From a virus: a DNA stretch of 34,663 bases. Positions 21,520 through 22,089 of the stretch are shown in pieces; within the stretch, counting starts at the first letter, position 1; each line of letters starts with the position of its first letter. The notes below the pieces were generated by a model, which was not told the DNA's origin, ran no database searches, and saw only the letters and a list, made by a program, of their open reading frames with translations. The DNA lies in UHGV virus genome UHGV-0173140; one strand, written 5' to 3'. The position numbers and the translations under genes were made by a program.

Positions 21520-22089
21520 TCACAGCTCCCCCATCGCTTTAACCAGTGCGTCGTAGTGTTTGTCAAACGCGGTCAACTGGACGTTCGTTAGTTTGTATTT
21601 GGCTTTAAACAATTCACGCTCAACAAGTGCGTATAACTCCTGGTTGCTTGCGTCTGACAGATGAGCAAGCATGAGTTGTTTTTCAGCCAGGTACGTTACA
21701 GCAAACTTCGGATCGTGTCGGACAATTGAATAGGTGTTATCCAGCAGATCACACAGTTTTATGGTTTTTACCACAGGTTCAGCCCGTGATAAATGGTCGA
21801 TGTCCCGTGCTTTACGCTTAACACGGTTACCGTGGTGTGGACGACTCACATCAGTAAGCTGATCAACATAACGTGCCACAGTCTCACCGAACTGCGAACA
21901 CACATCACCCACGGTCACGGGCGTATCTTCAACGACGTCATGTAGCCAGGCAGCGGTAACCATATCCGGCGTACCACCATAGCGTTTAACCAGTTCAGCA
22001 ACGTTCCGGCAGTGGTTCACATATGGGTCGTTGGTGTACTTACGAAGTTGATCACCGTGTGCTGCTGTTGCGAATTGTTCAGGTGTCAT
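21520..22089 (-). CDS. HD-domain (p)ppGpp hydrolase-like protein (small alarmone hydrolase family)
   Basis: AAHGDQLRKYTNDPYVNHCRNVAELV and AAWLHDVVEDT resemble the RelA/SpoT hydrolase HD signature. Confidence 0.65.
   Translation of the reverse strand: MTPEQFATAAHGDQLRKYTNDPYVNHCRNVAELVKRYGGTPDMVTAAWLHDVVEDTPVTVGDVCSQFGETVARYVDQLTDVSRPHHGNRVKRKARDIDHLSRAEPVVKTIKLCDLLDNTYSIVRHDPKFAVTYLAEKQLMLAHLSDASNQELYALVERELFKAKYKLTNVQLTAFDKHYDALVKAMGEL

Follow-up and report, generated by a model that had tools for sequence, protein, structure and literature searches.

A gene on the minus strand of the window (the whole 34,663-nt stretch of viral DNA analysed here, UHGV virus genome UHGV-0173140) very probably codes for a small alarmone hydrolase (SAH), i.e., a single-domain hydrolase of the RelA/SpoT homologue (RSH) type. 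The profile, sequence and fold matches described below put its resemblance to RSH hydrolases far beyond chance. Taking the proposal as a whole, we consider it likely that the protein is an SAH of the PaSpo clade, which would act as a Mn2+-dependent 3'-pyrophosphohydrolase and counter toxSAS toxins and/or (p)ppGpp. We infer from the motifs and from the homologue encoded by phage SSU5 that the enzyme is active and which substrates it would accept; the time of its expression and its benefit to the phage are likewise proposed, with about even chances for counter-defence as the main benefit.

The ORF listing of the window shows a single intact ORF at positions 21520-22089, exactly the interval given in the earlier note. 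It begins with ATG, codes for 189 aa and lies on the minus strand, the strand being a detail that the note leaves out. Both motifs quoted in the note are present in the translation: AAHGDQLRKYTNDPYVNH covers residues 9-26 and AAWLHDVVEDT covers residues 46-56. At its 5' end the hydrolase gene shares an ATGA with the upstream ORF (22086-22319), its ATG and the TGA of that ORF overlapping, and at its 3' end its stop codon overlaps with the start of the next ORF downstream (21347-21523). Because of these overlaps and of the GAGG element preceding the ATG (Table 1), the ORF is probably a translationally coupled link in a tightly packed string of minus-strand genes.

The Pfam family HD_4 (PF13328) is built around the RelA/SpoT hydrolase domain. 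In a profile search the 189-aa protein matched it with 55.8 bits (E 5.9e-15, gathering score 27.2), well above the 22.9 bits of the generic HD family, the only other Pfam domain found in the protein. The NCBIfam model TIGR00691 (spoT_relA) was matched with an E-value of 2e-20, residues 6-122 aligning with model positions 4-122, which correspond to its N-terminal hydrolase part, and PHROG 990 ("metal-dependent phosphohydrolase") with an E-value of 7e-38. A HMMER search of PDB sequences returned 22 matches with E < 0.01, all of them to SAHs, MESH1, N-terminal domains of Rel/SpoT or a Bacteroides (p)ppApp hydrolase; Lmo0812, MESH1, PaSAH and RelH are the hydrolase-only SAHs named among them. The earlier note had read the gene as a standalone SpoT/RelA-type HD hydrolase and had suggested searching it against HD_4 and RelA_SpoT profiles; the HD_4 and TIGR00691 scores, together with the sequence, motif and fold evidence, bear this reading out.

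Orthologues of the gene are already annotated in GenBank, albeit loosely, under the names "metal-dependent phosphohydrolase", "polyphosphate hydrolase" and "RelA/SpoT family (p)ppGpp synthetase". The synthetase name is wrong, while "polyphosphate hydrolase" is loose and misleading.

Six motifs, HD1-HD6, have been defined for RSH hydrolases (Bisiak 2022, PMC9293644). In this scheme the Arg of HD1 stacks with the base, the His of HD2 and the His-Asp pair of HD3 are Mn2+ ligands, the Glu-Asp pair of HD4 attacks the 3'-phosphate, HD5 combines an Asp with Arg/Lys and contributes to Mn2+ binding, and the Asn of HD6 coordinates the base (Bisiak 2022, PMC9293644). The motifs were mapped onto the window protein through its HMMER alignment to MESH1 (Table 1), and conservation was assessed in an alignment of 35 homologues with a mean identity of 50%. 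Residues R16, K17, H26, H50, D51, E54, D114 and N118 are invariant in this alignment, and D55 is kept in at least 90% of the homologues. That the metal-binding and catalytic residues do not vary among proteins with a mean identity of only 50% argues for selection on catalysis.

The sole departure from the motifs is in HD5, where D114 is followed by Leu (L115) instead of Arg/Lys. The D:hydrophobic variant of HD5 is known for a subset of SAHs (PMC9293644), and the same form, KLADLLDN, is present in the SSU5 enzyme, which is active in toxSAS co-expression assays. By analogy with these proteins, the Leu need not speak against activity.

Table 1. Features of the putative hydrolase gene and its surroundings (coordinates are those of the window)
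Feature	Position	Strand	Evidence
Small alarmone hydrolase CDS (predicted; hydrolase-only RSH protein, PaSpo-like), 189 aa	21520..22089	-	ORF, HD_4, spoT_relA and PDB matches, SSU5 identity, AlphaFold2 model, Foldseek
GAGG, Shine-Dalgarno-like element 10 nt upstream of ATG	22100..22103	-	Read from sequence
HD1: R16 codon (base-stacking Arg; MESH1 R24, RelSeq R44)	22042..22044	-	MESH1 alignment, invariant in 35 homologues
HD2: H26 codon (metal ligand; MESH1 H35)	22012..22014	-	MESH1 alignment, invariant in 35 homologues
HD3: H50-D51 codons (metal ligands; MESH1 H61-D62)	21937..21942	-	CAT GAC read directly (plus strand gtc/atg); invariant
HD4: E54-D55 codons (catalytic Glu-Asp pair; MESH1 E65-D66)	21925..21930	-	Codons read directly; E54 invariant, D55 in at least 90%
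HD5: D114-L115 codons (Asp metal ligand; Leu partner, not the usual Arg/Lys)	21745..21750	-	D114 invariant in 35 homologues
HD6: N118 codon (base-coordinating Asn; MESH1 N126)	21736..21738	-	MESH1 alignment, invariant in 35 homologues
Packed gene string: ParB-like gene, about ten small ORFs, SAH gene, four small ORFs	20742..24823	-	ORF lists, Bas82 and PDP46 annotation

The AlphaFold2 model, built from a 35-sequence alignment, consists of eleven helices and has a mean pLDDT of 97.3 and a pTM of 0.92. It shows the all-alpha fold of RSH hydrolases; neither in the model nor in the Pfam scan was a synthetase, TGS or ACT domain found in the 189-aa protein. When the model was compared with PDB structures by Foldseek, the top 50 matches were all RSH hydrolases, with human MESH1 in first place (TM 0.77-0.81, rmsd 2.0 A). 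The two C-terminal helices (residues 150-188) are, judging by the alignment and the model, common in this form only to close orthologues.

Many SAHs encoded by phages and prophages were reported by Jimmy et al. (2020, PMC7229694), who tested two of the phage enzymes, PbcSpo of PVP-SE1 and PaSpo of SSU5 (both are Salmonella phages). Each of the two neutralised all five toxSAS toxins tested, i.e., CapRel, PhRel, PhRel2, FaRel2 and FaRel, and it was proposed that incoming phages encoding such hydrolases could bypass alarmone-mediated defence (PMC7229694). The window protein is 51% identical to the SSU5 enzyme (SSU5_099, YP_006906731.1, 213 aa) over 145 aa with an E-value of 1e-44. The PbcSpo subfamily was considered as well and rejected, PVP-SE1 gp220 being just a distant relative (36% identity over 73 aa, E 6e-6). 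When all were aligned together, identity to the clade as a whole was 45-51% for SSU5 and about 31% for PVP-SE1. By these identities to one named PaSpo and one named PbcSpo member, the window protein is probably a PaSpo-like phage SAH, with the SSU5 enzyme as its closest tested relative.

The chemistry of the toxins is relevant for the range of possible substrates. Four of the five toxSAS pyrophosphorylate the CCA end of tRNA, and in vitro the pyrophosphorylated tRNA can be aminoacylated again through the action of the SAHs MESH1 and ATfaRel (Kurata et al., bioRxiv 10.1101/2021.04.30.441581). The SSU5 SAH is reported to remove the 3'-pyrophosphate from FaRel2-modified tRNA and has been used to detoxify CapRelSJ46 for purification. 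It also rescues cells from FaRel, a producer of (pp)pApp (PMC7229694); its toxSAS data were obtained by co-expression from plasmids and not during phage infection (PMC7229694). As this relative acts on FaRel2-modified tRNA and rescues from FaRel, the name "(p)ppGpp hydrolase" used in the earlier note is, by analogy, probably too narrow.

The region carrying the hydrolase gene is 96% identical to a group of 9NA/Sasha-like E. coli siphophages (Sashavirus 536P12, KarinMuster_Bas82, vB_EcoS_PJ16, AVIO78A and PDP46), and the window can be assigned to a virulent 9NA/Sasha-like E. coli siphophage with a genome of roughly 57 kb. Six E. coli 9NA-like phages have annotated orthologues that are likewise 570 nt long and show 98-99% aa identity (98.9% identity for the Bas82 copy), and the protein copies of Salmonella phages FSL SP-062 and SP069 are about 90% identical. 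No near-identical copy was found by megablast in 5,426 complete E. coli genomes, and on this result an origin of the gene from E. coli itself or from one of its prophages was rejected.

The gene string listed in Table 1 is followed by terminator-like hairpins at 20699-20718 and 20617-20637, and the neighbours of the hydrolase gene code for small proteins of unknown function according to a PHROG scan. The stretch between the ParB-like gene and about position 21000 is a variable accessory block. In the Salmonella phage Sasha one small gene replaces the approximately 3-kb block bearing the hydrolase gene, and this replacement sits between the ParB-like gene and genes matching window positions 20500-21054. 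Since Sasha has a single small gene at the syntenic site, the hydrolase gene can be placed within the variable accessory block; by this comparison it is accessory and dispensable in close relatives such as Sasha.

The promoter scan found no convincing promoter directly upstream of the hydrolase gene. The sole site with a strong resemblance to sigma-70 promoters, with 11 of 12 matches, precedes the ParB-like gene (25096-25068). Fewer sites were counted in all than expected from shuffled sequence, so the scan is uninformative.

We propose the following course of action for the enzyme. It would bind one Mn2+ ion via H26, H50, D51 and D114, while R16 and N118 would hold the nucleotide and E54/D55 would hydrolyse the pyrophosphate (or phosphate) on the 3'-OH of a purine ribonucleotide. 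As likely substrates we regard (p)ppGpp, (p)ppApp and tRNA with a 3'-pyrophosphorylated CCA end, although the sequence does not tell how much tRNA repair would weigh relative to the removal of (pp)pApp or of (p)ppGpp. The gene may be transcribed together with phage replication and accessory genes as part of an early operon. The products of host toxSAS, i.e., CapRel-type tRNA pyrophosphorylation and (pp)pApp of the FaRel/Tas1 type, would then be erased and (p)ppGpp would be lowered secondarily, so that translation and nucleotide metabolism could be kept running in the infected cell.

It was suggested in the earlier note that such a hydrolase could blunt the stringent response or alarmone-based defences. 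For phage SAHs this is an already published hypothesis (PMC7229694), and the idea of a role against alarmone defences is strengthened here by the 51% identity to a tested enzyme. In the literature searched we found no demonstration of a phage SAH rescuing a phage from toxSAS defence. In the BASEL study, Bas82 did not stand out for robustness against the panel of defence systems, which may or may not include toxSAS.

The enzyme could also be chiefly a (p)ppGpp hydrolase directed against the host stringent response and not chiefly a counter to toxSAS toxins; we regard this as a possible reading with clearly less than even chances. Its fold and catalytic motifs are as in MESH1 and the hydrolase domains of SpoT/Rel, which hydrolyse (p)ppGpp, the guanine-holding Arg of HD1 and Asn of HD6 are retained, and the stringent response has been reported to be a barrier which phages counteract by other means (bioRxiv 10.64898/2026.01.27.700999). 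However, SpoT is already present in E. coli, the work on the nearest tested enzyme concerned toxSAS toxins, four out of five of which make no alarmone, and the dispensability of the gene in Sasha is easier to reconcile with a counter-defence specific to certain host strains than with a general physiological need. The two roles are compatible and the sequence alone does not rank them; these last three considerations, i.e., the host SpoT, the toxSAS work on the SSU5 enzyme and the dispensability in relatives, are the reason why we slightly favour counter-defence.

The clade-specific D-Leu form of HD5 and the extra two-helix tail might reflect specialisation for a macromolecular or undescribed substrate. 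We consider such specialisation unlikely; candidate substrates may include the 3'-pyrophosphorylated CCA ends of particular tRNAs modified by enterobacterial CapRel-type defences or some unknown 3'-phosphorylated immune signal.

Substrates other than alarmones have to be considered because the best fold matches of the model are the complexes of human MESH1 with NADPH and PAPS (TM 0.75-0.81). A MESH1-like action on such a 3'-phosphorylated metabolite would reprogram host cofactor pools, and one orphan bacterial SAH has been reported to be metabolically promiscuous (PMC9765508). This reading is very unlikely, given that identity to MESH1 is 27-28% compared to 51% for the SSU5 enzyme that neutralises toxSAS, and that ppGpp hydrolysis and tRNA repair are activities of MESH1 too, so likeness of fold cannot discriminate between the substrates.

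SAHs are also known as type IV antitoxins or immunity proteins encoded beside RSH toxins (PMC7229694), and the phage does have a MuF-family head protein. The hydrolase might thus protect from the phage's own (p)ppApp synthetase or tRNA pyrophosphokinase toxin, in the manner of Aph1/MuF-Apk2 or ATfaRel/FaRel. Against this, the MuF-like protein has 319 aa and PF04233 as its sole match, with no C-terminal toxin domain. Pfam detected neither an RSH synthetase nor a toxin domain in this protein and nine other window ORFs, and the same holds for PHROGs among the neighbours of the hydrolase gene. Nor is an RSH synthetase or toxin gene annotated in the complete genome of the 96%-identical Bas82. Two roughly 50% identical homologues were also examined, both of them in phage or prophage DNA: the one from Burkholderia adjoins a phage lysozyme gene and the one from an uncultured phage adjoins genes for a MazG-like protein, thymidylate synthase and DNA polymerase A, and neither has a RelA_SpoT neighbour. 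As no RSH synthetase toxin is adjacent among the neighbours and ORFs scanned, an antitoxin or immunity SAH of the ATfaRel or Aph1 type was rejected, and we hold this explanation to be highly improbable.

Finally, membership in another HD subfamily (dNTP triphosphohydrolase, cyclic-nucleotide phosphodiesterase or polyphosphate hydrolase) or a catalytically dead remnant, which the loose GenBank names and the atypical partner residue in HD5 might suggest, can practically be dismissed, as the metal-binding and catalytic residues are invariant and no dNTPase, HD-GYP or PDE family or structure was matched in Pfam, NCBIfam, PDB sequences or the top 50 PDB folds, so that the better homology to another HD subfamily such as dNTPases, named in the earlier note as an argument against an alarmone hydrolase, was not found.

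Both the class to which the protein belongs (orphan phage SAHs) and the hypothesis of their acting against alarmone and toxSAS defences are already published. The sequence finding adds one member to this known class and corrects the names "(p)ppGpp synthetase" and "polyphosphate hydrolase". No study of the SAH clade of 9NA-like phages was found in the literature searched, and the BASEL paper describes no recognisable additional locus with supplemental functions in KarinMuster and its relatives.

Phage alarmone hydrolases are a proposed viral answer to abortive infection of the toxSAS/CapRel type and to restriction by the stringent response, and the evidence for counter-defence by phage SAHs comes so far from plasmid co-expression rather than from infection. 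Bas82 (KarinMuster) belongs to the BASEL collection and can infect E. coli K-12 whose O16 antigen has been restored. As it carries the gene and close relatives naturally lack it, an in-infection test on CapRel hosts looks feasible. Should the specialised-substrate reading prove true, the protein would become the first phage SAH with a demonstrated role as a true anti-defence factor in infection, as opposed to a general alarmone scavenger.

Among the known systems, Aph1 from a Bacteroides caccae prophage (7SMG) resembles the window protein in being a phage-linked protein of the HD fold. It is a (p)ppApp-specific 3'-pyrophosphohydrolase paired with a MuF-fused synthetase toxin, whereas the scanned window ORFs yielded no such toxin. 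Assignment to the Aph1 family was rejected, the match to 7SMG being marginal (E 0.0099 by sequence, TM about 0.5). PVP-SE1 gp220 is, like the window protein, a phage-encoded SAH and neutralises toxSAS toxins, but the PbcSpo group, which also includes ATfaRel of C. marina, is a different subfamily.

The bacterial SAHs PaSAH (6YVC), RelH of C. glutamicum and L. levettii (7QOC/7QOD/7QOE) and Listeria Lmo0812 (4YF1) share the fold and the motifs and are hydrolase-only as well. They differ in being chromosomal proteins of housekeeping or self-protection and are 22-26% identical to the window protein by fold alignment. The PaSAH of P. aeruginosa is reported to degrade both (p)ppGpp and (p)ppApp; it has Leu in HD1, where the window protein keeps the Arg.

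Human and Drosophila MESH1 (3NR1, 5VXA, 3NQW, 9CHY) are the best structural matches (TM 0.75-0.81, rmsd 2.0-2.6 A). MESH1 is likewise a single-domain protein of about 180 aa, and all its catalytic residues align with those of the window protein. Identity is just 27-28%, however, and HD5 is D-K in MESH1 and D-L in the window protein. MESH1 is metazoan and its physiological substrate is debated (NADPH).

The SSU5 PaSpo SAH is, like the window protein, a standalone phage RSH hydrolase with no adjacent synthetase toxin and has the same HD1-HD6 pattern, including KL(A/C)DLLDN. The two phages are dissimilar, as SSU5 is a 103-kb temperate phage-plasmid while the window phage is a virulent-type 9NA-like siphophage of roughly 57 kb. 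The proteins themselves differ at the C-terminus: the SSU5 enzyme is longer (213 aa) and has a different tail, whereas the window protein ends in its two helices.

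The accessory block that carries the small alarmone hydrolase (SAH) gene looks, judging by sequence matches, like a mosaic swapped between lambdoid prophages and virulent 9NA-like phages. Genes of lambdoid and Stx-converting temperate phages, one of them annotated as an "EaE protein", match the 142-aa ORF of this block at 88-95% nucleotide identity, and the DUF1382 counterpart of the 84-aa ORF points in the same direction. The hydrolase operon is convergent with the 256-aa ORF, which is followed immediately by a bidirectional hairpin (20617-20637). Within the 256-aa protein a short peptide is repeated in tandem (PVARVEA PVARVEA PVVDV); for gp81, the orthologue in the Salmonella phage Sasha, the annotation notes a "direct tandem repeat region".

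Neighbouring and selected other genes of the window
Feature	Position	Strand	Assignment
RdgC-family protein, full-length	16653-17576	+	PF04381, E 5e-116
256-aa ORF	19842-20612	+	PHROG 25538, unknown function, E 8e-152
84-aa ORF	20742-20996	-	counterpart in E. coli phage PDP46: "DUF1382 family protein"
142-aa ORF	22746-23174	-	PHROG 614, unknown function
131-aa protein	25105-25500	-	YspA/cpYpsA-related SLOG family, PF10686, E 2.9e-19
226-aa ORF	25497-26177	-	cytosine methyltransferase (PDP46 annotation)

Two further loci in the window deserve a mention. The SLOG gene, whose relatives are annotated as "GTP-binding domain" or "SLOG cluster4", is located directly downstream of the 226-aa ORF, for which a Pfam scan returned no match. 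Since SLOG domains bind nucleotides, a tie of the 131-aa protein to nucleotide signalling or DNA modification is possible. The counterpart of the RdgC-family protein in the E. coli phage Bas82 is named "exonuclease recombination-associated protein".

Orthologues of the hydrolase carry misleading names in database records (PQ783785.1 PDP46_0095, OQ955832.1 PJ16_095, MZ726797.1). The protein has no synthetase domain, so the name "RelA/SpoT family (p)ppGpp synthetase" is incorrect, and "polyphosphate hydrolase" is a loose name. In Sashavirus BDX09P1 (OZ035775.1, 55836-56404) the orthologue aligned as two pieces covering 569 nt versus 570, pointing to a frameshift in this genome or to an error in its sequencing. 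A homologue of the hydrolase is encoded on an uncultured phage contig (L013, Logan SRR29078247; 5469-6531), where a MazG-like (PF01503 PRA-PH) pyrophosphohydrolase gene is directly followed by this SAH gene, with a weak Fic-domain gene two genes downstream. This locus may constitute a small cluster erasing nucleotide signals.

The C-terminal part of the hydrolase (residues 150-189, nt 21520-21641) forms two confident helices, 150-165 and 169-188, in the AlphaFold2 model. According to the alignment, this two-helix tail is conserved in the same form only in the three close orthologues (P0002-P0004), whereas the remaining members of the clade either end earlier or have an unrelated tail. The helices may serve as an oligomerisation or partner-binding element. 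The SAH of Salmonella phage SSU5 has a longer tail than the hydrolase described here, with a faintly similar ending, ...(F/Y)(D/E)KH..AL...
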